Numbered from the stretch's first letter, positions 7,076 to 63,752 are shown. The stretch is 64,000 nt of DNA from Candidatus Latescibacterota bacterium (GCA_963667175.2 CAXXXF010000014.1:256001-320000); one strand, 5' to 3'. The notes: generated by a model from the letters alone, not told the origin. Numbers and translations are program-made.

Positions 7076-7124
7076 TGGGTTTCTCCATCGGTATGCGACG
7101 GGCTTCTCTTATTCAGAAACCGAT

Positions 7125-7756: not shown

Positions 7757-7759
7757 GTT

Positions 7760-9868: not shown

Positions 9869-9991
9869 ATGGGACGGCATAATGAGACGCATAAGGGGTC
9901 TGGAAAGGCAGAACGTGACGGCATCTCGGTGATCGAGTTGGCGGAAGGGTTTCCGGACGAGGCGTCTGTGTACTCGGCAGTCACCTTGTGA
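9869..9991 (+). pseudogene. IS1595-family transposase N-terminal fragment
   Basis: MGRHNETHKGSGKAERDGISVIELAEGFPDEASV resembles the GK..R.GIS..EL..MFPDE start of IS1595-type transposases; lies directly behind an end/promoter repeat and stops after 40 codons. Confidence 0.65.
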
Positions 9992-10007
9992 ACTCCAACG
10001 TGAGAGC

Positions 10008-15434: not shown

Positions 15435-16799
15435 CTATCCTCCCAGCCTGCCCAGGACGTTGCGGGTGATCCGCGTGACGGGACCGTCGTCGCGGTAGAG
15501 GCCGTGCGACCATTCCATGGTTGCCGCCGTGAAGACGGTCCCCCTGAACTCGGTCTCGTTGACGGCGATGGTCGCATAGAACCGGTCGTAATGAATGCCG
15601 AGGTCGGCGTTGAATCCGTGGTCTTCGGCGTCTCCGATGGCGATGATCCGGTAGTGCGGGCTGATCCCGTCGCTGCCGGTGAAGTACGGCTTTCCTTCCC
15701 TGAACTCGATGTCGCCGCCGTCACATTCCACGCCGACGATCGAGTCCTCGCGCCCGAACTCGTCCCCTTCCTCCAAACCGGTCCCCTCGAACGCCCAGTG
15801 GTCGGGCCGGCTCACGCGAAAGAATCCGTACTCCCCGCTTGTGGGCGCGATGAACACGCCGGGCGTCCGGGTCTTCGCGTGGACGGCGGCCGAATAGGAA
15901 ACCCCGATGGTGCGCTGGCGAAGGTTGTCGATCCCGCGGAGTAAGGAGGTGTGCGGGTCATCAGGCGTGCCCAGCGGGTGTTTCTTGTACCGGGTCTTGG
16001 CGCAATAGAGCTGTCTCCCGTTGCCCCTCGTCTCCACCAGGTGCGAGAACGAGTTTCCCGCCAGCACGATCAGGTTCCCGCCGCGGGCCACGAACCGCTG
16101 AAGCTGTTCGCACTCCTCCCGGCTGGTATACTCGCCGTGTCCGATCCTCAGATGTGCCGCATAATTGTCGAGAAGCTCCGGTTCCCGGTCGTGGTCCGCG
16201 TTGATACAATAGTCCACGGAATATCCCTCGGCGTCCAGCCAGGAGGTGATGAACTGGTCCCAGGCGTAGAATCCGCCCATGATGTCCGGTTGCAGCGGAC
16301 GCTCGAACGTCACCAGGTCGCTGTGGGTTCGGTCGGTGGACAGATAGTGGAAGAGACTCTTGCCGCCCACCGGGTTGTAGGCGGCATAGGTATTGGTCTC
16401 GATGGTCAGAAGCATCGGGGCGGAGGGAACGCGAGGACGGACCACGAACAGGATTTCGCGGACCCCCTGGGCGGTGGGGAAGCCGGCGACGTAGACGCCG
16501 CTCTTCCAGTCGTTCGGGACGCGGAACGTCACCGTCTCGGGCCAGTCGAATCCGTCGCGATAGCCGAACGCGGGGATCGGAGGAAGCGCGCCGCGCAGGT
16601 TGGCGATCTCCTTGACAAGACGGCGGCGGGCGCCTTCGTGGTACACGAACACGTCGTAGTACGATCTGGAATTCGAGATATGGAAGGTGACTTCCTCTCC
16701 CTGAAACACACTCATCGGACTGGCGTAACCGCCCTCTCTCAATTTCCAGTACCGCGTTGCGTCCTGTTCGTAGTGGGCGAAAATGTGTTCGCGTTTCAC
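15435..16799 (-). CDS. N,N-dimethylformamidase beta-subunit-like protein
   Basis: WKSGVY, TNTYAAYNPVGGKSL, GHGEY, GGNLIVLAGN, HWAFEGTGL, VGVECDG and TVFTAATMEW motifs. Confidence 0.7.
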   Translation of the reverse strand: MKREHIFAHYEQDATRYWKLREGGYASPMSVFQGEEVTFHISNSRSYYDVFVYHEGARRRLVKEIANLRGALPPIPAFGYRDGFDWPETVTFRVPNDWKSGVYVAGFPTAQGVREILFVVRPRVPSAPMLLTIETNTYAAYNPVGGKSLFHYLSTDRTHSDLVTFERPLQPDIMGGFYAWDQFITSWLDAEGYSVDYCINADHDREPELLDNYAAHLRIGHGEYTSREECEQLQRFVARGGNLIVLAGNSFSHLVETRGNGRQLYCAKTRYKKHPLGTPDDPHTSLLRGIDNLRQRTIGVSYSAAVHAKTRTPGVFIAPTSGEYGFFRVSRPDHWAFEGTGLEEGDEFGREDSIVGVECDGGDIEFREGKPYFTGSDGISPHYRIIAIGDAEDHGFNADLGIHYDRFYATIAVNETEFRGTVFTAATMEWSHGLYRDDGPVTRITRNVLGRLGG

Positions 16800-49377: not shown

Positions 49378-49453
49378 GGGGCTGTAGCTCAGCTGGGAGA
49401 GCGCATGACTGGCAGTCATGAGGTCGTCGGTTCGATCCCGATCAGCTCCACCA
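49378..49453 (+). tRNA. tRNA-Ala (GGC)
   Basis: GGGGCTG/CAGCTCC acceptor stem with G3:U70; anticodon arm CATGA-CTGGCAG-TCATG; GGTTCGATCCC T-arm; encoded CCA; 76 nt. Confidence 0.97.
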
Positions 49454-49462
49454 TGAAATCAG

Positions 49463-49503
49463 AAACAGGCTTGCGCCACGCGGCGCAAGCCTGTTTTGGT
49501 TTT
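49463..49503 (+). terminator. Intrinsic terminator after the tRNA
   Basis: AAACAGGCTTGCGCC-ACGC-GGCGCAAGCCTGTTT followed by T-rich sequence. Confidence 0.8.
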
Positions 49504-49510
49504 GGTGATG

Positions 49511-49559
49511 CCCTCACCCGACGTTGCGCGTCACCCTCTCCCAGAGGGAGAGGGTATGA
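49511..49559. repeat. REP-like element with a near-identical copy inside hsdM (50461-50509)
   Basis: CCCTCACCCGACGTTGCGCGTCACCCTCTCCCAGAGGGAGAGGGTATGA; 3 mismatches over 49 bp versus the intragenic copy. Confidence 0.85.
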
Positions 49560-49758
49560 TTGGGGAGGAGGTGAACCGGTGGAGGAATTCGGCATGTCAG
49601 CGCGTACTCGCCGCTTAGTGTCGCGAATCGCGACAGTTGTACGTATACGATCCCGGTTTCAATTAACCTGTTTTACGTTGACTGAAATTCCTGCGTGGTA
49701 TACTTTAAAGGTGTACATTAGATCAGCTAAGGAATGGTAAACCGGGGAGCTATACACG

Positions 49759-51399
49759 ATGGCGAAGGGTCGACGAAAAAAGACCAGGACGGATGCCGAA
49801 TCCAGCGAAGCTACGGATTTCCGATCCAAACTATGGGCGATGGCAGACGCGTTGCGGGGCAGCATGGACGCCGCCGAATACAAGCACGTCGTCCTGGGTC
49901 TGATCTTCCTCAAGTACATTTCGGACGCGTTCGAGGAAGCCCATGCCAGGCTCGTGGAAGAAATCGCTGAAGGAGCAGACCCGGAAGACCCTGACGAGTA
50001 TCGCGCCCAGAGCATCTTCTGGGTGCCGCCGGAAGCGCGTTGGAAACAGCTTCAGGCGCAGGCGCGGCAACCAGCCATCGGACGTGCGGTTGACGATGCA
50101 ATGGCCGCCATAGAACGGGATAATCCCGTGCTCAAGGACGTCTTGCCAAAGGACTATGCCCGTCCCAACCTGGACAAGACTCGCCTGGGGCAGGTGGTGG
50201 ACCTGGTTACCAACATTAACGTGGGCGGGGCAAAAGCCCGGGCGACGGACGTGCTCGGAAGCGTCTACGAGTACTTCCTGGAGCAATTCGCACTGGCTGA
50301 GGGCCGGAAGGGCGGCGAGTTTTACACCCCGCGCTCGGTAGTGCGTCTGCTGGTTGAGATGCTGGAACCCTACAAGGGGCGGGTCTACGACCCGTGTTGC
50401 GGCTCCTCGGGGATGTTCGTTCAGTCGATGGCGTTCATTGACGCCCATACCGGTGGGATACCCTCACCCGACGCTACGCGTCACCCTCTCCCAAAGGGAG
50501 AGGGTATGACTGTAGATAAGGCAGGCGGCGGAAGGGGCGATATCTCTATCTACGGACAGGAGTCCAACTACACCACCTGGCGAATGGCAAGGATGAACCT
50601 CGCGATTCGCGGCATCGACGGCCGAATCGAGCACGGGGACAGCTTCCACAACGACCGGCATCCGGACATGAAGGCCGACTACATCCTCGCCAATCCGCCC
50701 TTCAACGTGTCGGACTGGGGCGGCGACAGGTTGCGCGAGGACAGACGGTGGGAATTTGGCGTCCCACCCGCAGGTAACGCGAATTTTGCGTGGGTGCAGC
50801 ACTTCCTTTCTCACCTTGCGCCGCGCGGCATCGCCGGCTTCGTACTGGCCAACGGCTCCATGTCGTCCAACCAGTCGAACGAGGGGGAAATCCGGAAGAA
50901 TATCATCGAGGCCAACCTCGTGGACTGCATCGTCGCCCTGCCCGGCCAACTCTTCCGGTCGACGCAGATCCCCGCGTGTCTGTGGTTTCTGTCAAGGGCG
51001 CCCTCACCCGGGGGAGGCGCGAGGGTGCGCGGTGGCGAAACCCTCTTCATCGACGCCCGAAAGCTGGGTCATCTGGTCGACCGGACGCACAGGGACCTCT
51101 CGCCGGAAGACATCGCCCGGGTCGCGGACACCTACCACGCCTGGCAAAACGGAGAGGGCTACGACGACGTTCCAGGGTTCTGCAAGAGCGCATCGCTCGA
51201 AAAGATCCGTAAACACGGCCACGTCCTCACGCCCGGCCGCTACGTCGGCGCTAAGCCGCAGCCGGAAGATGGTGAACCCTTTGAGGAGAAGATGTCCCGT
51301 CTCGCGAAGCAGTGGCGCGAACAGCAGGTCGAGGCCGCAAAGCTGGATGCCGCTATTGAGAAGAATCTGAGAAAGCTTGGCTTTGGAGACGATCGATGA
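49759..51399 (+). CDS. hsdM: Type I restriction-modification methyltransferase subunit M
   Basis: [53 protein letters not shown] and VLTPGRYVG. Confidence 0.95.
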
Positions 51400-51614
51400 C
51401 CTACACTGACGATGAGATCAAACGCCAACTTCGTCTGGGCGAGGACAGCCAGTGGGAGTTCAAACGGAACGAATTTTCCGGGAACCGGCTGCGAAATCCT
51501 GGCCGCGATGATTGGGCCGACGAGATCGCCGCCTTTGCCAACTCGAACGACGGCACACTGCTTTATGGCGTCACTGACGCGGGGGATATTCAGGGCATGT
51601 CGCGCGAGCATTGA
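51396..51614 (+). pseudogene. Truncated copy of the AlbA_2/Schlafen-like gene
   Basis: [44 protein letters not shown] matches the first ~72 aa of 52406-54148. Confidence 0.85.
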
Positions 51615-51674
51615 GAAAGGCCGTCGGAAAAAGAACCGGCACGGGTCAACCCGGCAACGCAAAAGGAGGTCAAG

Positions 51675-51944
51675 ATGTCTGTCCAGAACTATCGGCCCGG
51701 GGAAATTTCCAGTCTGGGCAAGTCTATCTATCAGGAAAAGATCAAGCATCTGGTGGAACCTCAGGAAAATGGGAAGTTCATCGTCATCGACGTGGAAAGC
51801 GGCGAATACGAGATAGACGAACAAGACGTGGTCGCCTCAAGCCGGCTGCGAGAGCGTCGGCCCAACGCCGTTACCTATGGGGTCATCATCGGCTATCGCG
51901 TCGCGTACAGCCTCGGGGGAAGAATCGAGGCTACTGATGATTAG
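51675..51944 (+). CDS. Small protein (DUF5678-like), partner of a clan AA protease
   Basis: GKSIYQEKIK..GKFIVIDVESGEYEID..RLRERRP..IGY; AGGAGG RBS; overlaps the next gene. Confidence 0.7.
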   Translation: MSVQNYRPGEISSLGKSIYQEKIKHLVEPQENGKFIVIDVESGEYEIDEQDVVASSRLRERRPNAVTYGVIIGYRVAYSLGGRIEATDD

Positions 51945-52314
51945 GGGACGAGTAAGCCGTCGTCTGCGCGTCCGACTGCCTATTGAGTTAATTCTCAACG
52001 ACGCCTCTGTCCGATCTGTAGAAGTTGGCCTGGATACGGGGTTTACGGGTGATTTGACATTACCCTCAGAGGTAATACGGCAATGCGGAATGACACCGGA
52101 AGGTGAACGCTCGGTGGTCTTGGCCAACGGCGACGAGGTACATCTGAGGGTCTGGCAAGGCACGACACTCTGGCATGAGAGGCCGTGCCGGGTCAGGGTA
52201 TTCCAAGCGGAGGGTGAACCCTTGCTGGGCATGAACCTGCTACGGGGTAGCCGGGTTACTTTGGACGCTCTGGTCGGCGGTAACGTGGTCATAGAGGAAC
52301 TCGACAGAATGTGA
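51937..52314 (+). CDS. Clan AA (retroviral-like) aspartic protease
   Basis: [12 protein letters not shown] catalytic motif, LANG and PLLGMNLL. Confidence 0.85.
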
Positions 52315-52405
52315 ACGGCGAATGGCGCGAACAACAGGCGGAGGCCGCAAAGCTGGATGCTGCGATTGCGGTAAATCTCAAAAAGCTTGGCTTTGGAGAC
52401 GATCG

Positions 52406-54148
52406 ATGACCCACACTGACGATGAGATCAGACGCCAACTTCGTCTGGGCGAGGACAGCTACTGGGAGTTCAAGCAGATCGAATTTTCCGGGAACCGGCT
52501 GAGAAATCCTGGCCGCGATGACTGGGCCGACGAGATCGCCGCTTTTGCCAACTCGAACGGCGGCACACTGCTATATGGCGTCACTGACGCGGGGGATATA
52601 CAGGGCATGTCGCGTGAACAGATGAACGTGCTGGAACGCACGATCGTCGAGCTGTGTACTCAATCGATCAAGCCCCCGCTTTTCGACGTCGTAATCACGC
52701 GTCACGAACTGGATGGCAAAGCACTGTTGTCCGTCTCCGTAGCCAGAGGCGCCGCGCAATACGACAGCCCGGGTGGCAGTTTCCGGCGCGTGGGCAGTTC
52801 CAAACGTCAAATGGGCAGCGACGAACGCATGCGCCTGGCACAACAGCGCGGTCAGGCCCGTTTTCGCTGGTTTGACGAGCAGCCCCTGCCTCAGACCGGG
52901 TTCCGCACGCTGGACGAGGCACTTTGGAAACCCTTGCTCAGCGTGAGCGGGAGGGCCGAACCCCATACGGCCCTAGAAAAACTGGCATTGTTGGGCAGGG
53001 ACGAGGACGGCGCAGTTCGGGCCACTGTGGCTGGGATTCTCCTTTGCACCCACGCGCCTGAGGAGTGGCTTCCCAGCGCTTGCATCACCGCGACCCATTA
53101 TCGCGGCGAGGACCGGGCATCCGGCCAACTCGATGCGCAGATCATCACCGGGCCGATCAACCGGCAGGTGGCGGACGCAATGGCATTTGTAATGCGCAAC
53201 ATGCGCGTTGGGGCGTACAAGAAACCCGCCCGAATGGACCTTCCGCAGTACAGTGCCGAAGCACTTTTCGAGGCGATCGTAAATGCCGTCGCCCATCGGG
53301 ATTATACGATACGAGGCAGTCGAATTCGAGTGTCCATGTTTGCCGACCGCGTGGAAATCAACTCGCCGGGCGGGTTGGCCAACAACCTCACCATCGACAG
53401 CATGGCGGCACGGCAGGCAACGCGCAACGAAACCATCGCGTCCGCGCTCGGGCGAATGCCCGTTGGAGACATTCCCGGGTCTGAAATGCGTCAATTCTTC
53501 ATGGAACGCCGCGGCGATGGTGTTCCCATTATCCTGCGCGAGACCGAGGCGTTGAGCGGTAAACCCCCCAGGTATTGGCTACTTGGCGAGTCAGACCTCT
53601 TTCTTACGTTGCCCGCCAGGGACACCAGTGCCACGCCAGCCACTGTCGTGGTGACGGTACGACGAGATGGTCGCCCGATTTCGGGCGCCGATTCGCTGGC
53701 GATTTTTCCCGATAACACCTGGATACGGGCCACGACGGACGAGAATGGAGAAGCGGCGATGGACCTGTACGCGACAAATCTGCCCATGACCGTGTTCGTC
53801 GCAGCCGGGGGCTATAAAGCATACGTTGAACAAGGGTGGGTTCCGACGAACGGCGCGCTGGCTGTGGAAGTCAAACCGCTTTCCGGCGGCGGCGCGGTGA
53901 TTTTTCCCGAGGCAACCGGCAAGATTCCGGGGCTCAAGGGACAGCTTAATCCCATTCGAGACGCACATGACCGGACCTACCTTTATGCCTCGAACATCGC
54001 CATCAACCAGGGCCAGCCGCAACCCGTTCACTTTTCGTTCGGTGAAGACTTGCGGCTCATAGATTCGAATGGCGTCGAAACGTGCGTGCGCGTCGTCCAA
54101 ATCGAAGGCAGATCGGCATTGGTGGAATATCGGCCATTCAAGGCGTGA
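52406..54148 (+). CDS. AlbA_2/Schlafen domain plus HATPase_c_4 (RecG-C-like) protein with an extra beta-rich C-terminus
   Basis: [49 protein letters not shown] and MERRGDGV. Confidence 0.82.
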
Positions 54149-54230
54149 ACAGCAGGCCGAGGCCGCTAAGCTGGATGCGGCTATTGAGGCGAACCTGCAA
54201 CGGCTTGGATTTGGAACGGAAGAATAGAAC

Positions 54231-54653
54231 ATGCGCATCAACACCGATTTCCTGATTCGATGCATCAACACACTGGAGTCGGCCTTCAAGGAGTTGCAGC
54301 AGCGAGAGCCATCCGATACCTTCTACGACATATTCCGCGCAGCTTCGGTCAAAGAGTTCGAGATTGTGCTGGAACAGTCCGGCAGCCTGTTGAAAAAGCG
54401 CCTAAGGCCCTACCTGGCCAGCAACAGACACGCGGACAGGCTTACGTTCAAGAATGCGTTCCACCACGCCGCCAAACACGACCTCATCTCCGTGGAAGCC
54501 TGTGAACGCTGGTTTGCTTACCGGGACGACCGGAACGACACCGCCCACGACTATGGCGAAGCCTTTGCCGAAACCACACTCACATTGCTTCCGCAATTCA
54601 TCGTCGATGCCAGAAATCTGGCGAAAATTATCGCAGAGGTCGACGATGACTGA
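54231..54653 (+). CDS. HI0074-family HEPN-like protein (nucleotidyltransferase substrate-binding subunit)
   Basis: AASVKEFEIVLEQSGSLLKK; DRNDTAHDYG (R-x4-H); overlaps the start of the MNT-HsdS gene. Confidence 0.85.
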   Translation: MRINTDFLIRCINTLESAFKELQQREPSDTFYDIFRAASVKEFEIVLEQSGSLLKKRLRPYLASNRHADRLTFKNAFHHAAKHDLISVEACERWFAYRDDRNDTAHDYGEAFAETTLTLLPQFIVDARNLAKIIAEVDDD

Positions 54654-56694
54654 CAGATTGGACCTGCCGCAGAGATACCGGAGCATACTCGAGGGGCTGC
54701 TGCGTGAGCATGTGCCCGACGCCGAGGTGTGGGCCTACGGCAGCCGCATCACAGGCGAGAGCCACGAGGGCAGCGACCTGGATCTGGTGGTGAGGGGACC
54801 CGGACTGGAGCCCCTGGGCGACGGCTTCTTCAGCCTGCTGGAAGCGATCGAGGAATCGAACATCCCGATCCTCGTCCAGGCGCACGACTGGGCACTGTTA
54901 CCTGAGAGTTTTCACCCAGAGATAGAGCGGGACTACGTGGTGGTTCAGGGGGACCAAAGCGGAACAGAAAGCAGGTGGACAGCCACCACTTGGGGCGAAC
55001 TTGCAACGTTGGAATATGGAAAGTCGCTCCGTGGGTATGATTCGGCTGAAGGACCTTACAGGGTCTACGGAACCAATGGACCAATCGGCAAAAACAACGA
55101 GCCGCTCTGTCGGCATGCCAGCGTCATCATTGGGCGCAAGGGGGCGTACAGGGGTGTCCATTACTCCCCTGATCCGTTCTTTGTAATCGATACTGCATTT
55201 TACATGAAACCAAAGGTAGACCTCGATACTCGGTGGGCGTACTACCAACTGCTCACTCAGGATATCAATGGCCTCGATAGCGGCTCTGCAATACCGTCAA
55301 CGAGCCGTGAGGATTTTTATGGTCTGCCAGTTGAAGTCCCACCTCTGAAGGAACAACGTGCTATCGCTCATGTTTTGGGAACGCTGGACGACAAGATCGA
55401 GTTGAACCGGCGGATGAACGAAACGCTGGAGGATATGGCGCGGGCGCTCTTCAAGTCGTGGTTCGTCGACTTCGACCCTGTCCACGCCAAAGCCGCGCTC
55501 AGTCAAACTGCAGGTTCTTCATCGCGCGCCCACCCACCTATCACTCCCCCCTTGGGGGGGAGTCGGCAAGACGAGGGCGTCAGCCCGACGTCGCGCCGGT
55601 GGGGGGATATCCGTCGGAAATACACCCGAGAAACCCTCGAAAAAGCCCGCTCACTGCGCCAGACCCAAACCGACGCCGAGGGCCTCCTGTGGCACTACCT
55701 GCGAAATAAGCGATTGGGCGGATACAAATTCCGCCGCCAGCATCCCATGGGCAAGTACATCGCGGATTTTGTTTGTCTGTCGCGGAAGCTGATCATCGAA
55801 CTGGATGGCGGCCACCACGCGAAAGAGAACGACTACGATGAAGAGCGAGACCGCTTCTTGCAGAACGAGGGCTATCGCGTTATGCGGTTCTGGAACAACG
55901 AGATTCTTGAGAGTTGTATGGGCGTGTTGGAGAAAGTGTTCGACGCATTGGAGTTCCCCCCTCCGCCGCCGGAGGCGGCGACTCCCCCCCAAGGGGGGAG
56001 TGATGGCGAGGTGTCATCGGGTTGGACAATCGAACGGGCTCGCGCGTATCTCGACAAGATGGACCCGTCCATCGCGGCGCTGTTCCCCGATCGCTTCGTC
56101 GATTCGGAATTGGGCGAGATCCCGGAGGGGTGGGAGGTGAAGGCGTTGGGGGATGTAGCGAATCAACGGAGAAACGGACTAACTCCAGAGCAGATTGACC
56201 CAAGTGCGCCGTATATAGGGCTTGAACATATGCCCCAACGCTCCATTGCACTTTCGGAATGGACCAACGCGGATGGACTCGTTAGCGGAAAGAGCAGATT
56301 TGAAGAAGGTGACATCCTGTTTGGCAAACTAAGGCCTTACTTCCACAAGGTAGGCGTCGCTCCAGTCGAAGGAGTATGCTCGACCGATATAGTTGTTATA
56401 TCACCAATATCTGCGCATTGGTTCGGGGTTGTCCTTGGACACACGTCCAGCAAGCAATTCGTTGACTATACGGATGCCGCATCAACCGGTACCAGAATGC
56501 CGCGCACCAAATGGAAAGACATGGCATTATATGGGTTTGCGCTACCGGGCGTCGAAATCGCCTGTGGCTACAATGCACTCATCCAACCCTGGATTGAGAG
56601 AATGCTGTCAGCGATCCACGAATGTCGAATGCTCGCTAAGCAAAGGGTTGAACTGCTGCCGAGGTTGGTTTCCGGCATTGTGCGGATTGGATAA
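54646..56694 (+). CDS. hsdS: Type I specificity subunit HsdS with an N-terminal nucleotidyltransferase domain and an internal DUF559 nuclease
   Basis: WAYGSRITGESHEGSDLDLVV (MNT); IIGRKG..GSAIP..PPLKEQRAIAHVLGTLDDKIELN (TRD1 and conserved region); YKFRRQHP..IIELDGGHH..RFWN (DUF559); DSELGEIPEGW..ILFGKLRPYF..LLPRLVSG (TRD2). Confidence 0.9.
   Translation: MTDRLDLPQRYRSILEGLLREHVPDAEVWAYGSRITGESHEGSDLDLVVRGPGLEPLGDGFFSLLEAIEESNIPILVQAHDWALLPESFHPEIERDYVVVQGDQSGTESRWTATTWGELATLEYGKSLRGYDSAEGPYRVYGTNGPIGKNNEPLCRHASVIIGRKGAYRGVHYSPDPFFVIDTAFYMKPKVDLDTRWAYYQLLTQDINGLDSGSAIPSTSREDFYGLPVEVPPLKEQRAIAHVLGTLDDKIELNRRMNETLEDMARALFKSWFVDFDPVHAKAALSQTAGSSSRAHPPITPPLGGSRQDEGVSPTSRRWGDIRRKYTRETLEKARSLRQTQTDAEGLLWHYLRNKRLGGYKFRRQHPMGKYIADFVCLSRKLIIELDGGHHAKENDYDEERDRFLQNEGYRVMRFWNNEILESCMGVLEKVFDALEFPPPPPEAATPPQGGSDGEVSSGWTIERARAYLDKMDPSIAALFPDRFVDSELGEIPEGWEVKALGDVANQRRNGLTPEQIDPSAPYIGLEHMPQRSIALSEWTNADGLVSGKSRFEEGDILFGKLRPYFHKVGVAPVEGVCSTDIVVISPISAHWFGVVLGHTSSKQFVDYTDAASTGTRMPRTKWKDMALYGFALPGVEIACGYNALIQPWIERMLSAIHECRMLAKQRVELLPRLVSGIVRIG
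55540..56004 (+). mobile_element. 465-bp in-frame DUF559 module bounded by perfect 26-bp inverted repeats
   Basis: ATCACTCCCCCCTTGGGGGGGAGTCG (55540-55565) is the exact reverse complement of CGACTCCCCCCCAAGGGGGGAGTGAT (55979-56004); 465 = 155 x 3. Confidence 0.8.
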
Positions 56695-56747
56695 TCCAAC
56701 GAGAAAATGTCAGTAAATGTCAGTATAAGAAATATGAACCTCGAAGG

Positions 56748-59051
56748 ATGTTTGCAATTGAGAGTTGGTCCAACATGAAACGAAGACGAAGAGCGAAACG
56801 AAAACGCGGCGCAAGGAATACGAAACCTGAAGAGAACAGCTTCCAGGTTATCAGATTTTCACCTCCCCGACTCGACCGCGAAAAATCCGAAGGGCGTTTT
56901 CGTGTGAAAAAGGACGAATGTGAGGTCAAGTTTCGTGAGCTAGTCCATTCTCTGTCTGGTCGTTTTCGCAATAGATATCCACCACAGATTATATCGATTG
57001 TCGCGGCCTATGGGTTACATCGACAGGTAACTAGCAAGGGGGTCAGTGAAAGGGCGTTTGTCGACGTGATTCAACAGTATCACGTTGAGTTCCTACAGGC
57101 CTTGGCGCTTACGATTTCCAAAAACGAGTGGGGCAGTAAGCCAGTAACGCCAGACATTGTCCAAGCGACTATCGACGAAGTTATCGAGTTGGGAGAATCG
57201 TTCCGAATAATGCGGCAATCTGCATTGCAGAATGAACACGACAAGGAAGAACAAGCCGTGCTGGCTTTAAGAGATCGACTTCGCACACACACTCAGATTT
57301 CGCGCAACTGGGGATATCGTACAGCTATGGTGGAAGATTCAGTCGAGCTGTACAGCCCCTTGGACTCGACATTACAGAACCACTACGGATTCAGTGCAAC
57401 GGACGTGATTGAAGTAGCGATAACCCTCATCAGAGTGATGGAGAACCGCGCTGCTGAACATTGGACAATGGCCAGCGAGATTCTTCGATCGCGGAATGTT
57501 CGTCTGGTCGCCAAACGACTCTTTGCCCAATATTCGGACAGCGAGGTCGAACCTGGTGAATTCGAACGTGCATTTCCGGAAAGTCTTGATAACAACGCTG
57601 TAGAGGCGCGTATATGGTCACTTATGGACACCAATCTATTACATCTGTTTCTTTTCGACTGTGAGAGAGTTGCCGAAGAATCCGGCCGATCAATCGAAAT
57701 TGTATCGCGAGTACTACGGAAACTATCTATGGGTCCCGGTGATCTCGCCCAAAACAAACCACATGAATTTCTCCTCAACAACCCGATTTGGGTTGCACCT
57801 GGTGTTATCACCGCGGGAGATTTCTTTTTCCCGATGCCGCAGATTGTACTCAGCCACATCCACGGGCTCATGCGCATTCTCGCCAAGTGCGCGGGTTTTA
57901 CAGACAGACTATATAAGCGACGATCTAAATTTCTCGAAAATAGAGTGTATGACACGATTCGTCGAATTCTTCCTTCTGCCCATTTGACTAAGAATGTAGA
58001 ATGGCGAATTGATGGAACCCGTTTCGAGACGGACCTACTCGGCAGGGTCGATCGGGTTGTGTTAATTGTGGAAGCAAAGTCCGGAGCGCTTACTGCCCAA
58101 GGCCTGCGAGGAGTTCCCTTGCGGATAAAGCGTCATGTGCACGACCTAGTTGTTAGTCCAGCAAAGCAATCTGCACGACTTGAGCAATTGATCTGGCAAG
58201 CGAAGTCAGGCGAGACCGTTGCAGCGGACGCGATTTCCGCGTTGGGTTTGGAACCAGACAAAATAGACACTGTCATTAGAATGTCGGTGACGCTTGACGA
58301 TTTCTCCATGATGGCGATTGCTGAACGGGAACTGAGGGCAGCGGGATGGATTCCGCCTGAGCTCCAAATAGCACCTACATTGACATTCGCAAATCTTGCA
58401 ACCGTAGTCGACGTACTTCACGAGCCAGCGTATTTTCTGCACTATTTCGCCGGACGTGAACGCACTCAGAAAACGATCGATCTGATAGGCGATGAGATGG
58501 ATTTGCTCGGCCTTTATTTGGAGACTGGTTTCAATATTGCAGAAAAGGAACTTGAGGGGGGCCCATTCATCACCTCTGGACTGTCTCGACAAGTGGATCA
58601 GTTTTACAATAGTGCCGATGCTGGTGTCGAAGTACGTAAACCACGACCAAAGATCCATCGCACATTAGAAAAAATCGTCCTCTATATCCAGAATAAGCGG
58701 ATGGAGGCCTGGTCGACAATCGCGCTTGATCTTCTGCGCATCGGATCTCTTGATGAGCAAAGGATGATTTTTCAGGACGTTCAGAGGCTACGAAAACGAG
58801 TAGCCAAGACTTATCGCGACCCGGCACACATTTGCTCGGAGTTTGTAGTTCCCGCAGAACACATCGATGCGTTTATTATATTTTATGTATTTCCCAATGC
58901 AATAGCCGGCGGTCGTTTCAAAGTGGCTGAAGAATTAGCCCGCCGTCAATTCGCAGTTCACGATCGATCTCGCTGCATAATAGTCGGAAAAATGATCGAA
59001 TCCTGGGACAAGCCTTATCAGTTTGTGGCCGTCTATAACAATCCAAAATAA
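56748..59051 (+). CDS. Large hypothetical protein with a NERD/PD-(D/E)XK-like nuclease motif
   Basis: FLENRV..ETDLLGRVDRVVLIVEAKSG..AKQSAR; lower GC; lies inside the R-M locus; start may be ATG near 56775. Confidence 0.6.
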   Translation: MFAIESWSNMKRRRRAKRKRGARNTKPEENSFQVIRFSPPRLDREKSEGRFRVKKDECEVKFRELVHSLSGRFRNRYPPQIISIVAAYGLHRQVTSKGVSERAFVDVIQQYHVEFLQALALTISKNEWGSKPVTPDIVQATIDEVIELGESFRIMRQSALQNEHDKEEQAVLALRDRLRTHTQISRNWGYRTAMVEDSVELYSPLDSTLQNHYGFSATDVIEVAITLIRVMENRAAEHWTMASEILRSRNVRLVAKRLFAQYSDSEVEPGEFERAFPESLDNNAVEARIWSLMDTNLLHLFLFDCERVAEESGRSIEIVSRVLRKLSMGPGDLAQNKPHEFLLNNPIWVAPGVITAGDFFFPMPQIVLSHIHGLMRILAKCAGFTDRLYKRRSKFLENRVYDTIRRILPSAHLTKNVEWRIDGTRFETDLLGRVDRVVLIVEAKSGALTAQGLRGVPLRIKRHVHDLVVSPAKQSARLEQLIWQAKSGETVAADAISALGLEPDKIDTVIRMSVTLDDFSMMAIAERELRAAGWIPPELQIAPTLTFANLATVVDVLHEPAYFLHYFAGRERTQKTIDLIGDEMDLLGLYLETGFNIAEKELEGGPFITSGLSRQVDQFYNSADAGVEVRKPRPKIHRTLEKIVLYIQNKRMEAWSTIALDLLRIGSLDEQRMIFQDVQRLRKRVAKTYRDPAHICSEFVVPAEHIDAFIIFYVFPNAIAGGRFKVAEELARRQFAVHDRSRCIIVGKMIESWDKPYQFVAVYNNPK

Positions 59052-59472
59052 CCAACGAAGATTGCTGGTTTCCAAGTAAGTGCCGTGTTTTCTATCTGGT
59101 AATTTCCAGATCCGATCACCTTCGATTTGGAAACAAGCGGGATTAAGTGGACTATGAACTTCAAACCTGATCTGATTGACGGAGTGCGAGGCGAAGATTG
59201 CTTGAATCGAGAATTCTCTCAGATGGGCGTTGTCGTAGTGGAAGCTGCAAGGCGAACGCGATTGTGGTCACAGTCAAAGAAATGCAATAAACAAAGTTTG
59301 TCCGATCGCTTTCCAGGAGATCCGTTATCCAGAGGGTAGTCACAGCCGTCGTTCAGGCAGAAACGTCTCCGTCTGATCGGACACGTCACCCTTGGCCAGA
59401 TGCACTTGGGCGACACAGCTATATGTGTGTCGGCAACCAACGTATAAACCCATATTTGGTAGGTGGACTTTT

Positions 59473-59862
59473 ATGGCAATAAAACGAGCGTTTATCAGCT
59501 TTGATTTTGATCACGACGAGGAACTTCGTGACGCCCTGGTGGGTCAGGCAATAAATGCTGACTCTCCATTCAGAATCTCAGACTGGTCGGTACATGAACC
59601 CTTCGATTCCAACTGGAGACAGAAAGTAAGGGACAGAATCCGAAGAACTGACTTGACGATCGTGATTTGTGGTGAGCACACTCACACAGCGAAGGGCGTG
59701 GCAGCCGAGGTGTCCATCGCCCAAAAAGAGAATAAACCGTATTTCTTGCTCTGGGGGCGACCCAAAAAGATATGCAAGAAACCCGCCAATGCCTATGCAA
59801 ACGACAAGATTTACAAGTGGGATTGGAAAATCCTGAAGAAGCTGATTGCAGGAGAAAGATAG
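59473..59862 (+). CDS. ThsB-like TIR domain protein
   Basis: KRAFISFDFDHD, DWSVHEP, TIVICGEHT and GVAAEVSIA (catalytic Glu), followed by KPYFLL. Confidence 0.85.
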   Translation: MAIKRAFISFDFDHDEELRDALVGQAINADSPFRISDWSVHEPFDSNWRQKVRDRIRRTDLTIVICGEHTHTAKGVAAEVSIAQKENKPYFLLWGRPKKICKKPANAYANDKIYKWDWKILKKLIAGER

Positions 59863-59866
59863 GAAT

Positions 59867-60376
59867 ATGGGTGAGCCAAGTATGGTCCTGTTCAGTCAGG
59901 CGAAAGAGAACTATGGTGACTCTTTCAACACGCACCTTCTGGAGCAGTATAAGCTTTACGTGCAGTCGGCGGAGAACGTGAGCGCGCGGAGAGTGGCATC
60001 GAGCCGATATCTGCTGACACTCAACTCGGCCCTCGTCGCGTTGTACGGACTTCAGTCGGCAGATCTTGACCAGAACTATTGGGCGTTGCTGATTCCCGTT
60101 GTGGGAATTAGAATATCCGTGCTTTGGTATCGGATCATCAAGTCGCACGCCGACCTGAACCGCGTCAAGTTCAAGATCATTTACGTACTGGAGGATCATC
60201 TGCCAGCAGCGATGTATAAATATGAGTGGCATTTGGCTGAGGAGGGCAGAGGAAAGACCTATCGTACAGTAACAACCTTCGAAAAGTGGGTACCTGTTGT
60301 GTTCGGGGCGCTGCACGTGGCTTTGGCGATCACAATCGTCTTGACAATCGCAGGTTTATTGGATTGCGTTCAATGA
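59867..60376 (+). CDS. Membrane protein with about 3 TM segments (LLEQYKLYV...RR...N family), candidate effector
   Basis: LLEQYKLYVQSAENVSARR..LLTLNSALV, WYRIIKSH..LN..KF..I..LE..LP..EW and FEKWVP; starts 4 bp after the TIR stop. Confidence 0.7.
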   Translation: MGEPSMVLFSQAKENYGDSFNTHLLEQYKLYVQSAENVSARRVASSRYLLTLNSALVALYGLQSADLDQNYWALLIPVVGIRISVLWYRIIKSHADLNRVKFKIIYVLEDHLPAAMYKYEWHLAEEGRGKTYRTVTTFEKWVPVVFGALHVALAITIVLTIAGLLDCVQ

Positions 60377-60626
60377 CGGGATGCTGGGGCGGTTCGCGAA
60401 CCGCCCGCAAATCTTCGGTCATCGAAACCGACATGGCGAATTTGCTGTAATGACCAACCAGATCCATGCCATTACGGTAAAATACAGACGCCCGCGAGCA
60501 TCCAGTCGTGGCGCTACGAAGAGGAAGGTCTGTGCGCCGCAACGTCATCGCACGGAAAGCAAATCGCGGTTGATCCAGTGAGATCGTCTGTAATAGACCA
60601 AATCGACGTTCACCGGGAGAGCCACG

Positions 60627-60905
60627 ATGCAAGAAACCAAATCCCAACGTGTTTGGACCGTGGCCGAGGCGAAGGCCCGGCTATCCGAAATCCTGCGCCT
60701 TGCCGAGGAGGAGGGGCCGCAACGCATCGGCGCGCGGAAGCCATTCGTCATCGTACCCGAGTGCGTATGGAAGTCTCGAGACCAGGCGTCCACCCCCTTG
60801 GGTCAGTGGCTGGTTGAAAACACGCCGCGCGGCACGAACCTTGAAATCCCAAGGCGTCGCGAGAGTGGCCGCAAGATTCCCTTCATCGAGGAATCAGACG
60901 AATGA
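60627..60905 (+). CDS. Phd/YefM (prevent-host-death) antitoxin
   Basis: WTVAEAKARLSEILRLAEEEGPQRI. Confidence 0.8.
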   Translation: MQETKSQRVWTVAEAKARLSEILRLAEEEGPQRIGARKPFVIVPECVWKSRDQASTPLGQWLVENTPRGTNLEIPRRRESGRKIPFIEESDE

Positions 60906-61000
60906 GCGGTTATCTCCTGGATACGAACGTGGTCTCGGAGTTGACGAAGGAAAATCCGAACCCGGCCTACATAGACGATCTGAACGCCCAGGAGGGTTAG
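60902..61000 (+). pseudogene. VapC/PIN toxin 5' fragment (32 aa)
   Basis: MSGYLLDTNVVSELTKENPNPAYIDDLNAQEG*; ATGA overlap with the antitoxin gene. Confidence 0.75.
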
Positions 61001-61001
61001 T

Positions 61002-61229
61002 ATGAGGTGGCAGGACTATATATCGAGCAAGCCGGACGTTTGCCACGGCAAGGCTTGCATTACTGGCACACGGGTCATGGCAACGGTCATTCTGGACAGT
61101 CTGGCGGAAGGGTTGAGTGTTGAGGAGATCGTCGAGAACTATCCGTCAGTATCACGCGAGGCGGTGCAGGCGACCCTGCTCTACGCTGCCGAGTTGGCAA
61201 AGGAACGTCTAGTGCCCTTGAGCGAATAG
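61002..61229 (+). CDS. DUF433 antitoxin-like protein, copy 1
   Basis: ISSKPDVCHGKACITGTRV..GLSVEEIVENYPSV..ATLLYA. Confidence 0.88.
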   Translation: MRWQDYISSKPDVCHGKACITGTRVMATVILDSLAEGLSVEEIVENYPSVSREAVQATLLYAAELAKERLVPLSE

Positions 61230-61237
61230 GGTCCGCC

Positions 61238-61591
61238 ATGCTTTTCAAGCTGGACGAAAATCTCCCTACAGCGCTTTCCGGACGCTTCGCCGAGGCGGGT
61301 CACGATGTAGTCACCGTCACGGATCAGGCAATGAACGGCGCAAGCGACCCTGATCTCGCGGCCATATGCCGTAGCGAAGGCCGAGCCCTTGTGACGCTGG
61401 ATATGGACTTTGCCGACATCAGGGTCTATCCGCCGCGGAACTATCCTGGGTTGGTGGTCTTCAGGCTCGCGAGGCATGCCTCGGGCCATGTGTTGGAAGT
61501 CGCCACAAGACTGCTCAGAACGTTGCCCGACGCCTCGCTTCACGGGCAGTTGTGGATCGTCGAAGATAACAGGATTCGTATCAGAGAGTGA
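61238..61591 (+). CDS. DUF5615 PIN-like toxin
   Basis: FKLDENLP, GHDVVTV, GASD, RALVTLDMDF and GLVVFRL. Confidence 0.85.
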   Translation: MLFKLDENLPTALSGRFAEAGHDVVTVTDQAMNGASDPDLAAICRSEGRALVTLDMDFADIRVYPPRNYPGLVVFRLARHASGHVLEVATRLLRTLPDASLHGQLWIVEDNRIRIRE

Positions 61592-61594
61592 CGC

Positions 61595-61642
61595 ATGACC
61601 ACCCTCACCGAAGCGGACGTTGAACAGGCGGCCCTTCACTGG
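61595..61642 (+). repeat. hsdR 5' head fragment, copy 1
   Basis: ATG ACC ACC CTC ACC GAA GCG GAC GTT GAA CAG GCG GCC CTT CAC TGG = MTTLTEADVEQAALHW, typical of the HsdR N-terminus. Confidence 0.7.
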
Positions 61643-61705
61643 CGCGTCGACCCCGGCAGTGAGTATCCCAGGTTCCTTACCGCGCACCCACGCAGGAGGT
61701 GAGAA

Positions 61706-61948
61706 GTGTTCAAGGAACACGATCAAATAGTGCATACCGCTGATGTTCGTGGTGACGAGGGAGAGGAACTAAAACCGGGCGACGTGGGCACCATCATACA
61801 CGTCCATCGCGATAAAGCCGCCTTCGTGGTGGAGTTCATGTCACTGGATGGCGCCACGGTGGCTATTGCTACCGTGTTGGCCTCGCATGCGCGTCCCGTA
61901 GATGGCGCTGATCTCACGCATGCCCGAACGATTGCGGCGGCAATCTGA
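61706..61948 (+). CDS. DUF4926 family protein
   Basis: FKEHDQIV..LKPGDVGTIIHVH..FVVEFMSLDGATVA; AGGAGG RBS. Confidence 0.8.
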   Translation: MFKEHDQIVHTADVRGDEGEELKPGDVGTIIHVHRDKAAFVVEFMSLDGATVAIATVLASHARPVDGADLTHARTIAAAI

Positions 61949-61976
61949 TTGGACGCGGTGGCGACGGCCCCTCTAC

Positions 61977-62121
61977 CCTTCGACAAGCTCAGGGACCTCA
62001 GGATCACGGACCGGCTCGGCTTCTTCGACTCCCCCACAAGGGGGAGTGATGCAGAGGTGTTAACGCTTGTTCATCGTGCGACAGATGAGATCGATGCGGG
62101 CAGACAGGAATGTCTGCCCCA
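61977..62121. repeat. Cluster of REP-like palindromes including an orphan DUF559-module end
   Basis: CCTTCGACAAGCTCAGGG (61977-61994), CGACTCCCCCACAAGGGGGAGTGAT (62026-62050) and GGGCAGACAGGAATGTCTGCCC (62098-62119). Confidence 0.7.
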
Positions 62122-62264
62122 CCATCAATCCGCTTCCGTCAGTATCGCAGTACATTCGCACTTGTGACGGACGTATCTCCTGGATACGAACGTGGTCTCG
62201 GAGCTGACGAAGGAGAATCCGGTCCGGGCCTTCATAGACGATCTGAACGCCCAGGAGGGTTCGT

Positions 62265-62498
62265 ATGAGGTGGCAAGAGTACATTTCATCAGACCCCACG
62301 ATATGCCACGGCAAGGCATGCATTACAGGCACGCGGGTTATGGCGACGGTCATTCTGGATAGTCTGGCAGAAGGGTTGCGTGTTGAGGAGATCGTCGAGA
62401 ACTACCCGTCCGTATCGCGCGAGGCGGTGCAGGCGACCCTGCTCTACGCTGCCGAGTTTGCTAAGGAACGGATAGCGCCATTGAAGGGAGTCCAATGA
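62265..62498 (+). CDS. DUF433 antitoxin-like protein, copy 2
   Basis: Near-identical to 61002-61229 and preceded by the same vapC-like upstream segment (offset 1263). Confidence 0.85.
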   Translation: MRWQEYISSDPTICHGKACITGTRVMATVILDSLAEGLRVEEIVENYPSVSREAVQATLLYAAEFAKERIAPLKGVQ

Positions 62499-62569
62499 AT
62501 CCCGGTGATAGACTGCGACGGAGAGACGTGAGCGGTCGTCCCAATATGCCATCTCGAAATGAGCGAGAA

Positions 62570-62782
62570 ATGCACAAGTACGAAATTATCATCTATTGGA
62601 GCAATGAAGACGGAGCCTTTGTGGCGGAGGCGCCCGAACTTCCCGGGTGCACGGCCCACGGTCATACCCAGGAGGCGGCGTTGCAGAACATCAATCAGGC
62701 CGTGGACCTGTGGCTGGAAACGGCCCGGGAGTTTGGAGACCCGATCCCGGAACCCAGGGGCGAACGCTTGATGTTGGCATAG
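62570..62782 (+). CDS. HicB-like antitoxin (no hicA seen)
   Basis: YEIIIYWSNEDGAFVAEAPELPGCTAHGHTQEAAL..GDPIPEP. Confidence 0.88.
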   Translation: MHKYEIIIYWSNEDGAFVAEAPELPGCTAHGHTQEAALQNINQAVDLWLETAREFGDPIPEPRGERLMLA

Positions 62783-62789
62783 GTAAATC

Positions 62790-62837
62790 AGGACCAACCT
62801 TACAGAAGTGGACGTAGCGCAGGCGGCCCTTGACTGG
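62790..62837 (+). repeat. hsdR 5' head fragment, copy 2 (start codon degenerate)
   Basis: AGG ACC AAC CTT ACA GAA GTG GAC GTA GCG CAG GCG GCC CTT GAC TGG = (R)TNLTEVDVAQAALDW. Confidence 0.65.
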
Positions 62838-62870
62838 CAGGTGGCCTATTGACTGATCTGGTAAGGATAC

Positions 62871-62899
62871 TTGACAAGATGGATAAGTGGGCATATCTT
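62871..62899 (+). promoter_or_regulatory. Sigma70-type promoter
   Basis: TTGACA-17 bp-TATCTT; ATACTTGACAAGA (62867-62879) is identical to 5531-5543. Confidence 0.55.
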
Positions 62900-62955
62900 T
62901 TCCAGCAAGATAGCTCACAAGAGTAAACTCGAAAATCTTCTGAAGAGAGCATTCC

Positions 62956-63447
62956 ATGGGCTCCTCTATCCCGCATGTAATGCCTGCCGCAGATTTGTCG
63001 CCCGTAACAGAACAGCCAGTAAAGAAATGCGTGAATGTAATCTCGCAGCCCTCTATTGTGGAACAATTCCGGCACGGGCTCGAAGAGACGAATGAGCACG
63101 TTTTGCAGGTCATGGCTGACTGGTACGGGTTTTTGCAAATGCTTGAGCAGAATCCGCAGAACTACAGGGAAATGTGTCGAGACGGTGACGTGGAGTCAGT
63201 AATCACTGGCCTGGAGGAGTCTGGAAAGAGTCTGCCCAGAGAAACCTGGACTGCCATCGGAAAAGTACTCAGGGAATGCGACGCCGACACGTACGAGAAA
63301 TTCGAGGAAGTGGATGAAAACGTACGGGCATGTGGCGCACTCCTTCGAGAAGTGAGTTGGACGCTGTCACTATTGCACCTGGAAAAAACGCCAAGCACTG
63401 GCCCTACCTATCCAATAGGTGAAGTCATTGAAAGCCTGCGGCGTTAG
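62956..63447 (+). CDS. Hypothetical acidic helical protein, probable antitoxin partner
   Basis: 163-aa ORF directly upstream of the RelE-like gene; C-terminal GPTYPIGEVIESL resembles antitoxin tails. Confidence 0.5.
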   Translation: MGSSIPHVMPAADLSPVTEQPVKKCVNVISQPSIVEQFRHGLEETNEHVLQVMADWYGFLQMLEQNPQNYREMCRDGDVESVITGLEESGKSLPRETWTAIGKVLRECDADTYEKFEEVDENVRACGALLREVSWTLSLLHLEKTPSTGPTYPIGEVIESLRR

Positions 63448-63449
63448 AT

Positions 63450-63752
63450 GTGGATAGATCATTCTTTCCGCCCGTAAAGAGAATAGTATTTCAAGATGAT
63501 AGCGTCGTAAAAGTCGTAAGCAGATTGCCAGGACCAGTAAAGAAACGGCTTCGAGAATTCCTGAGTGATCTTGAAAACGGGCAGTTGTCAAAAAGAGGAA
63601 AGAACATTTCGCAAACATCTGGCGTCAAAAAGTACCGATTGAACGATCAATTTCGCATCGCATTTGTTTTGCAGGGAGATACGGCGAGAATATTACGCAT
63701 TGGGGACCATGACGAAATGGATCGATTGTTGGAAGTCCTCAGGCGCCTCTGA
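63450..63752 (+). CDS. RelE/ParE-superfamily toxin-like protein
   Basis: Basic 100-aa protein: IVFQDDSVVKVVSRLP..KKYRLNDQFRIAF..ILRIGDHDE. Confidence 0.65.
   Translation: MDRSFFPPVKRIVFQDDSVVKVVSRLPGPVKKRLREFLSDLENGQLSKRGKNISQTSGVKKYRLNDQFRIAFVLQGDTARILRIGDHDEMDRLLEVLRRL

Follow-up and report, generated by a model that had tools for sequence, protein, structure and literature searches.

The stretch of DNA considered here is a window of 64,000 nt from Candidatus Latescibacterota bacterium, in which a type I restriction–modification operon occupies a locus at around 49.7-63.8 kb that can be followed up to position 64000. All genes of the locus are encoded on the + strand, and the first starts about 300 nt past a tRNA-Ala gene and a terminator-like hairpin. 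It begins with an intact gene for the modification subunit, hsdM, and contains, towards its other end, two short copies of the start of the restriction gene, hsdR, and between these lie embedded genes (the cargo) together with a series of stubs, which are partial copies of gene ends. Four kinds of stub are present: the tail of HsdM, the head of AlbA (72 codons), the head of VapC (32 codons, twice), and the head of HsdR. These stubs stand at the seams of a patchwork of modules and are probably scars of the recombination events by which the modules entered. Gene identities were assigned with Pfam, PADLOC, and NCBIfam, and the tRNA with ARAGORN and Rfam. The features, in order, are as follows (ORF, open reading frame):

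49378..49453, + strand: tRNA-Ala(GGC) (ARAGORN, Rfam).
49462-49497: terminator-like hairpin after tRNA-Ala (terminator scan).
49759..51399, + strand: hsdM, intact, 546 aa (Pfam HsdM_N 3.2e-28, N6_Mtase 1.2e-100; PADLOC MTase_I 5.2e-204).
51313..51399, + strand: hsdM tail 1, the native C-terminus, with its stop overlapping the AlbA-stub ATG.
51396..51614, + strand: AlbA_2 head stub, a 5' remnant of 72 codons (Pfam SLFN_AlbA_2 2.7e-11), inside a 298-nt repeat.
51675-51944, + strand: ORF of 89 aa without a family, the first half of a cargo pair (51675..52314).
51877-52314, + strand: ORF weakly resembling a clan AA aspartic protease (Pfam E 0.0046; TIGR03698 48 bits, under the cut-off).
52311..52409, + strand: hsdM tail 2, a mini-ORF of 32 codons, with hsdM homology from 52323.
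52406..54148, + strand: AlbA_2 + HATPase_c_4 protein, 580 aa (Pfam).
54069..54227, + strand: hsdM tail 3, an ORF of 52 codons with an ATG at 54069 and hsdM homology at 54142-54227.
54231..54653, + strand: HEPN (nucleotidyltransferase substrate-binding) protein (Pfam NTase_sub_bind 8.4e-15).
54646..56694, + strand: MNT nucleotidyltransferase fused in frame to HsdS (Pfam, PADLOC Specificity_I).
56748-59051, + strand: protein of 767 aa without a family (no Pfam, NCBIfam, or PADLOC match), in a cargo stretch of lower GC (56748..60376).
59392-59862, + strand: ThsB-type TIR protein (Pfam).
59846-60376, + strand: 8xMP membrane protein (Pfam).
60627-60905, + strand: Phd-like antitoxin (Pfam/NCBIfam scan).
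60902-61000, + strand: VapC head stub, copy 1, 32 codons, with an ATG that overlaps the Phd stop and its own stop 1 nt before the DUF433 ATG.
61002-61229, + strand: DUF433, copy 1 (Pfam).
61238-61591, + strand: DUF5615/PIN_10 (Pfam), which pairs with DUF433 copy 1.
61595..61702, + strand: hsdR head 1, codons 1-16 (61595-61642), read on as an ORF of 35 codons.
61706..61948, + strand: DUF4926 protein with a GTG start at 61706 (Pfam 1.1e-12).
62174..62260, + strand: VapC head stub, copy 2, decaying and with no start codon.
62265-62498, + strand: DUF433, copy 2 (Pfam).
62495-62782, + strand: HicB-like protein.
62790..62837, + strand: hsdR head 2, codons 1-16, decaying, with AGG in place of ATG.
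62956..63752, + strand: ORF of 163 aa without a family and a weak ParE-like ORF (Pfam/NCBIfam).

HsdM is recognized as the subunit of a type I system by both Pfam and PADLOC. HsdS is predicted to carry two target-recognition domains on the basis of Pfam Methylase_S at aa 110-262 and of the PADLOC Specificity_I models at aa 109-681. HsdR is represented inside the window by its two 16-codon heads, with no long HsdR match before 64000. The cargo ORFs are all on the + strand and lie between hsdM and the hsdR heads, an arrangement also found in related loci. An earlier reading of this DNA (the original prediction) had named many of these genes, and Pfam agrees with it for HsdM_N plus N6_Mtase, the AlbA_2 stub, AlbA_2 plus HATPase_c_4, HEPN, MNT plus HsdS, both copies of DUF433, DUF5615, the HicB-like protein, and Phd; the protease that it proposed is limited to the weak matches listed above, and its label of DUF5678 for the 89-aa ORF finds neither a Pfam match at E <= 0.01 nor an NCBIfam match. 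Beyond hsdM and hsdS, PADLOC matched only the AlbA protein, and that weakly, to pAgo-associated models. The GC content goes down to 0.48-0.51 across 56-60 kb, which is a sign of the mixed origin of the modules. Elsewhere in the window, the GC content is 0.46-0.47 at 7000-10000, versus around 0.6 on either side, so this may be another acquired segment.

The 3' end of hsdM occurs three times (51314-51387, 52324-52397, and 54142-54215), the second and third copies being 84-85% identical to the first in a repeat search; in pairwise comparisons, 64, 62, and 59 of 75 nt are identical (79-85%). The three tails had been claimed in the original prediction, and tblastn and translation yield the peptides that it quoted. 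Copies 1 and 2 are part of a longer repeat of 298 nt (51313-51610 versus 52323-52620, 91% identity), which comprises the tail plus the first 72 codons of AlbA. The left edges of tails 2 and 3 fall within about 2 nt of one position in hsdM, W/REQQ. The tails keep a close junction with the genes beside them: the GTG of tail 2 at 52311 overlaps the stop of the protease-like ORF (52312-52314), the stop of tail 2 (52407-52409) overlaps the AlbA ATG at 52406, and the stop of tail 3 lies 3 nt ahead of the HEPN ATG at 54231. Among the differences between the window tails, 6/11, 6/15, and 11/18 are synonymous, counts which are weaker evidence and from which selection acting at present cannot be told apart from that which acted earlier in functional genes.

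The heads of hsdR (61594-61643 and 62789-62838) are identical at 41/50 nt. The translation of head 1 is MTTLTEADVEQAALHW, of which 15/16 residues match the start of HsdR in locus L012 (related loci carry numbers with the prefix L and are described below), and its DNA aligns with the beginning of hsdR in L012 and L017 at 90% identity; these are genuine HsdR N-termini, and the two 16-codon heads had been correctly recognized at 61595 and 62790. Head 1 is read on as an ORF of 35 codons, which ends 3 nt before the DUF4926 GTG and has the motif AGGAGG just ahead of its stop. Head 2 stops after around 20 codons, and no gene lies directly downstream of it.

The cargo genes leave stubs too, since the repeat that precedes each DUF433 (60911-61024 and 62174-62287), and that had been missed, is the N-terminus of VapC; its matches in L026, L051, L014, L011, and L062 are the N-terminal ends of PIN genes located behind Phd homologues. 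The two copies of DUF433 have unrelated partners, DUF5615/PIN_10 and the HicB-like protein, respectively. The duplication of AlbA and VapC heads in the same manner as the hsd ends does not agree with the idea that the hsd ends are special handles.

A search with HsdM gave 80 related loci, one genome per species, which come from many phyla and which have HsdM identities of 49-80% to that of the window; the source genome is not among them. The closest, L006, is 80% identical in HsdM, 82% in the 580-aa AlbA protein, 84% in HEPN, and 88% in the HicB-like protein. In blastn, the one hsdM–AlbA junction of L006 is matched by each of the two copies of the 298-nt repeat. The region 54142-55490 (tail 3, HEPN, and MNT::hsdS) is colinear with L017 at 73.5%, where a full hsdM lies directly before HEPN. 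Likewise, 61041-61643 is colinear with the DUF433-DUF5615-hsdR segment of L009 as far as hsdR codon 16, where the window diverges (blastn). The cargo pair made up of the 89-aa ORF and the protease-like ORF has homologous fragments behind an hsdM remnant in L028. The modules between the stubs are, thus, colinear with the simple arrangements of L006, L017, and L009, as expected if the stubs mark module borders, which had been proposed; the interpretation of the locus as a patchwork with stubs at its seams is well supported.

The flanking genes are conserved in these relatives and the content between them differs. In the 185 of 413 listed downstream ORFs that were annotated with Pfam, the cargo found among the hsd genes includes Fic, AlbA, HEPN/MNT, Phd-PIN, HicAB, MazF, Abi, TIR, and SIR2, as well as Gabija-like genes, Mrr, DUF4143 ATPases, and others. 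The cargo between hsdM, hsdS, and hsdR differs strongly from one relative to another, in line with the cassette variation originally predicted rather than with a fixed gene order. In 44 of the 80 loci, both the end of hsdM and the start of a long hsdR could be located, and the spacing between them was at most 1.7 kb (corresponding to a bare hsdS) in 4, 1.7-3 kb in 8, and more than 3 kb in 32. Hence, 40/44 measurable loci have more than hsdS between hsdM and hsdR, and 13 additional loci run for 9-10 kb without an hsdR. Embedded cargo is the rule in this type I family.

The duplicated gene ends also recur. Extra hsdM tails were found in 10/80 loci with a profile of 67 intact tails, while tblastn gave 8; this count drops L018 and L060 (interrupted hsdM) and L053 (E 0.3), and it includes L066 only at E 0.12. 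Stray hsdR heads were found in 9/80 loci with an hsdR-head profile; hits cut by the end of a contig and hits within frameshifted genes are not counted. The lengths of these remnants vary: head stubs end near codons 16, 19, 33, 38, 40, 76, and 90, and tail stubs range from around 19 to more than 50 codons. A search of small proteins with the 52-aa tail-3 ORF gave 2 proteins at E <= 0.001 among 16 candidates, and both are bare HsdM tails, of 35 and 39 aa. In plasmids, tblastn with a 45-aa tail gave 57 records with one matching place each, all at less than 60% identity, a distance at which short stubs are undetectable.

Two further observations concern hsdR heads in relatives. In L044 (14625-14993), an ORF of around 80 further residues, which by eye resembles an HTH antitoxin, continues in frame from hsdR codons 3-40, such that the stub supplies the start of a cargo gene. 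In L006, a degenerate hsdR head (13980-14075) and a fragment of an MNT gene (13821-13911) lie between AlbA and HEPN; as this hsdR head is upstream of hsdS, stubs may end up far from their parent gene.

The presence of small reading frames at the seams raises the question of whether the stubs are translated. Twelve short tail stubs from the window and its relatives were searched for in-frame starts by script. In 5/12 (window tail 2, L007, L033, L044, and L066), a start overlaps the upstream stop, and L075 is a sixth by eye; 3/12 have no start at all (L013, L028 at 15830-15892, and L048). A TTG overlap in another L028 stub (13778-13891) was not counted, because it rests on an unverified ORF of 68 aa. 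Among the head stubs, those of L019, L027 (two), L037, L018, and window head 1 end at most 13 nt before the next start. Such start/stop overlaps are suggestive of translational coupling; they do not suffice as proof, because chance places an A, G, or T ahead of a TGA stop in 3/4 of cases.

A group of loci with a fic gene is particularly informative. The same Fic C-terminus is found in L007, L033, L066, and L075, and it is followed by a 25-nt spacer and a tail stub in L007, L033, and L075, while in L066 the spacer is shorter. The spacer is randomized, with 3-7/25 nt identical, beside a stub in which, between L007 and L033, 9/11 differences are synonymous over 25 codons (P = 1.3e-4) and, between L007 and L044, 11/13 are synonymous (P = 1.8e-5). 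Moreover, pN is 0.04-0.06 among the stubs of L007, L033, and L044 but 0.15-0.16 between these stubs and the tails resident in the respective loci, and the stub sequence is that of the intact tails of L027, L038, and L041. Between L007 and L033, identity is around 80% in hsdM, Fic, and the stub and around 50% directly past the stub. Decay is visible in L066 and in part of L075. The apparent conservation of amino acids in this stub can be read in two ways: the stub could be translated under purifying selection, or it could be refreshed by crossovers with functional tails. The Fic-plus-tail unit sits before three different downstream genes, as would be the case if the stub acted as a right-hand homology arm.

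How, then, could such a patchwork arise? The reading that we prefer, and to which we give a probability of about 0.6, has two parts: that the locus is a type I operon of a widely exchanged family which habitually nests defence and toxin–antitoxin genes between hsdM, hsdS, and hsdR, and that the stubs are scars of one-sided recombination, homologous on one side and illegitimate on the other, anchored in a gene of the operon. An arriving module (e.g., hsdM plus AlbA; the 89-aa ORF and protease-like gene plus tail plus AlbA; or cargo plus hsdR) would recombine on one side by homology within a shared anchor gene, while, on its other side, an illegitimate joint some dozens of codons into the anchor copy already resident would leave the end of that copy in place as a stub. 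If the joint fell past the anchor, the next hsd gene would be destroyed, whereas a joint inside the resident anchor, which has become redundant, would be harmless; only joints that spare every needed hsd gene would survive. This would explain the polarity of the remnants, with an intact hsdM followed by cargo and a tail stub, and with a head stub followed by cargo and an intact gene. The homologous anchors are evident from blastn, and the joints have been located.

Deletions could later shorten the stubs. The ribosome-binding site and the start/stop overlap of the neighbour would lie within the last 20-30 codons of hsdM and within the first codons of hsdR, vapC, and albA, and trimming might, for this reason, halt at these gene ends in many lineages. 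The stubs would then persist as mini-ORFs that pass ribosomes from the cargo to the next gene, and they may serve later as short homology arms. Both the scar reading and the persistence of the stubs are inferred from few independent stub lineages.

Several points weigh against this account. The HsdM relatives are mostly from metagenome-assembled genomes, and their gene calls are crude picks of the longest ORF; at HsdM identities of just 49-80%, the 80 loci include no close sister that shows the state before or after an insertion. The left edges of the short tail stubs (n = 11) cluster at profile positions 19-31 of 50, which pure illegitimate joining would not predict; the cluster may reflect trimming to a functional minimum combined with the limit of detection. 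Certain cuts are shared, since both window heads and that of L028 end after codon 16 and those of L027 (twice) and L032 near codon 33; such cuts could be inherited or could be preferred junctions. The synonymous-only pattern of the Fic-linked stubs could also come from repeated refreshing crossovers without any translation of the stub. Finally, promoter-like sites number 8 versus 7.8 expected and terminator-like sites 14 versus 14.4 after shuffling, which is neither an excess nor a deficit of the kind that would establish one long operon.

A bolder extension of the recombination-scar account is that the stubs have also been exapted, as a portable adaptor that hands ribosomes on and as a homology arm, which would make up a cassette system with an expression adaptor but without a recombinase. 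We regard this extension as tentative and more probably wrong than right. According to it, a mini-gene of 30-50 codons for the C-terminal helix of HsdM would be kept by selection, as would the first codons of HsdR, VapC, and AlbA, and units of hsdM, cargo, and stub could, if it is true, move between the type I loci of distant phyla. The HsdM-tail peptide might even dock on HsdS and tune the assembly of the methyltransferase.

The original prediction went further in another direction and proposed an integron-like platform, in which the hsdM tail and the hsdR head would be working, RecA-dependent handles by which cassettes are still stacked, swapped, and looped out. Of the alternatives to the scar reading, this one survives best, though it is doubtful. 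The Fic-plus-tail unit is around 80% conserved in L007, L033, and L066, with similarity that ends with the stub, and the genes that follow such a unit differ (HsdS in L007, an unknown ORF in L033, and ORF6N in L044). Against this, the drop in similarity past the stub may reflect the hypervariable first target-recognition domain of HsdS. Stubs that resemble functional tails with mostly synonymous differences are what repeated crossovers in the tail would give, and the same cut is found twice within one locus both in the window (codon 16) and in L027 (around codon 33). However, the AlbA and VapC cargo stubs behave likewise, stub lengths are unequal among loci, and decay has set in at head 2 and at the second VapC stub.

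The length of uninterrupted identity is also relevant to this alternative. RecA needs around 20-30 nt of perfect identity. The longest perfect runs in the window are 30 nt in the 298-nt repeat and 41 nt in a repeat of 311 nt (87% identity) made up of the VapC stub and DUF433; these two long repeats could recombine so as to delete the cassette between copies, and only they look usable as homology arms. Between tail 3 and either of the other two tails, and between the two heads, no unbroken match exceeds 11-12 nt, so these copies would now be poor substrates for recombination. Together with the varying lengths of the stubs and the absence of a structured site at the three tails and two heads, this does not bear out the handles as proposed. 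"Integron-like platform" is, therefore, partly supported: it is a fair analogy for function, given that the stubs mark module borders, that the cargo varies, and that the Fic-plus-tail unit precedes three downstream genes, but the data do not demonstrate it as a mechanism.

A second possibility is that the copies are due to local duplication only, by unequal crossing-over or slippage in one lineage and without foreign alleles. The three window tails are mutually nearest among 68 tails (85%, 83%, and 79%, while no relative exceeds 79%), the copies of the 298-nt repeat are 91% alike versus 67-74% to relatives, and the stub of L048 is identical to its resident tail at 59/60 nt. The tails of the window and of L048 leave the original claim that the copies come from different alleles unsupported. 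Local duplication, however, brings no differing cargo between the copies; the L007, L033, and L044 stubs are nearer to each other than to their resident tails, as described above; the GC content differs between modules; and the DUF433 copies have unrelated partners. As a sufficient explanation, local duplication is improbable.

The possibility that the locus is an artefact in which the alleles of co-occurring strains were strung into one contig is very improbable: although the copies differ by 9-21%, as strain alleles do, and most related records are metagenome bins, each copy has unique flanks and reading frames that fit to the nucleotide, and a like structure is found in L012, L013, and L048, which are stub-bearing loci from records titled complete chromosomes.

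Least probable of all, and hardly to be entertained, is site-specific integration, either of small elements that target the 3' end of hsdM (as islands target tRNA genes) with an integrase acting in trans or of true integron cassettes, since, in spite of the near-coincident left edges of tails 2 and 3 and the clustering of short tail stubs at one region in relatives, the edges are several codons apart between loci, long stubs exist, head stubs end at at least six positions, and the first repeat runs 211 nt past the tail into AlbA; since no recombinase, integrase (IntI included), or transposase was found among the 18 ORFs of 49.7-63.8 kb scanned with Pfam; and since no attC-like fold or RNA or DNA family match was found at the stubs.

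The searches behind these statements agree with the original prediction that neither an integrase nor an attC site is visible. The three tails (on both strands) and the two heads fold no better than shuffled sequences (z -1.2 to +0.6), and Rfam gave only the tRNA, although Rfam may or may not hold an attC model. The 3' end of tRNA-Ala, a candidate island border, has no second copy in the window, and the extents of the hsdM repeats differ (298 versus 74 nt), unlike those expected of an island that targets a 3' end.

Other observations bear on individual genes of the locus. The pair of the TIR protein and the octameric membrane protein 8xMP (window 59392-60376) is also found between hsdS and hsdR in L005, L008, L019, and L025, and it has no match among the PADLOC models; the 767-aa protein has no homologue in the 80 loci. 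MNT is the partner of the HEPN gene, and its in-frame fusion to the N-terminus of HsdS recurs in at least 8 loci (L002, L006, L009, L010, L016, L017, L028, and L058), and in L028 the linker region of the fusion encodes an hsdM tail remnant in another frame. The central part of HsdS contains, in frame, a DUF559 domain (Vsr-like endonuclease fold; window 55491-56079), and this insert is flanked by 35-nt inverted repeats (55531-55565 and 55979-56013) that are 89% complementary. DUF559 is also present within HsdS in L018, L026, and L028, and it lies inside HsdM in L075; the domain in HsdS looks like a mobile in-frame insert. In L007 (7291-9638), a Gabija-like pair of AAA_15/OLD-TOPRIM and UvrD-like genes follows hsdS in the same operon as Fic and a tail stub.

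A palindromic element that resembles a repetitive extragenic palindrome, with the core ACCCTCTCCCAGAGGGAGAGGGT, occurs at 49507-49571, after the tRNA terminator, and again at 50457-50521, inside hsdM. The insert in hsdM is in frame and adds around 18 residues that are absent from L006, the alignment to which breaks at 50447/50533. A similar element sits in frame within the tail stub of L075.

The nesting of genes in type I operons is itself well documented. PrrC is encoded by a gene nested in the EcoprrI operon (PMC3710099), and TgvAB of Vibrio cholerae VPI-2 is likewise nested (bioRxiv 10.1101/2024.04.04.588119). A guilt-by-embedding survey found that type I restriction–modification systems frequently hold embedded genes, 96.7% of which are in the same orientation (bioRxiv 10.1101/2024.01.29.577857). 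PIN toxins and DUF433-PIN_10 modules are also known to occur with type I subunits (PMC5499597). In these cases, as in the window, the cargo is co-oriented among hsd genes, and much of it is related to defence or toxins. The cited passages contain no discussion of the route by which cargo enters; the window locus adds the stubs, with their form as mini-ORFs. None of the words "recombination", "remnant", "hotspot", and "exchange" appears in the main text of the survey, from which systems containing pseudogenes had been removed (bioRxiv 10.1101/2024.01.29.577857). A search of the literature that left uncovered the supplements of PMC5499597 (Figure S7) and of the embedding preprint found no description of gene-end remnants in type I loci.

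Three further systems invite comparison. The minimal mobile elements of Neisseria have variable content between conserved flanks, have no mobility genes of their own, and owe their exchange, in the view taken there, to homologous recombination in the flanks (PMC3787668). The window resembles them in its conserved flanks, variable content, and absence of mobility genes. The window differs in that its flanks are genes of one operon, its joints lie within genes, and partial duplications are left behind; moreover, the exchange of these type I loci spans many phyla, a distance over which simple homologous recombination works poorly. Homology-facilitated illegitimate recombination (HFIR), which combines a homologous anchor with an illegitimate joint at a few bp, is RecA-dependent and is described in transformable bacteria (PMC6382021, citing de Vries and Wackernagel 2002 and others). 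HFIR is a process defined in the laboratory, whereas in the window it would be deduced from anatomy. Integrons, too, have co-oriented, largely promoterless cassettes that are stacked with a repeated element at their borders; in the window, however, no IntI, attI, attC, folded sites, or precise borders were found, and the repeats are pieces of coding genes.

In EcoKI, the 3' end of hsdM overlaps the start of hsdS, and translation of the two is coupled (PMC3510504). The tail copies of the window retain an overlap of this type with whichever gene follows, but the carrier is a free-standing remnant of 32-52 codons rather than a full hsdM.

Since embedding is already known, the new detail is that gene-end stubs lie at the seams of the cargo and that some of them appear to be kept as small ORFs, a detail which is modest but general. 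Nesting in restriction operons is now used to discover immune systems, and how a gene enters such an operon without breaking it is not addressed in the works cited above. The stubs offer a testable account, in which entry would occur through an anchor gene, only joints that spare the hsd genes would survive, and the leftover end would become a translational bridge and possibly a homology arm. Stray HsdM tails and HsdR heads could, as markers, date and delimit insertions and separate cargo from the genes of the system, and the loci that bear them would be missed by annotation pipelines in which any locus with a pseudogene is discarded. The recurrence of this pattern of scars in relatives suggests how such clusters are built.

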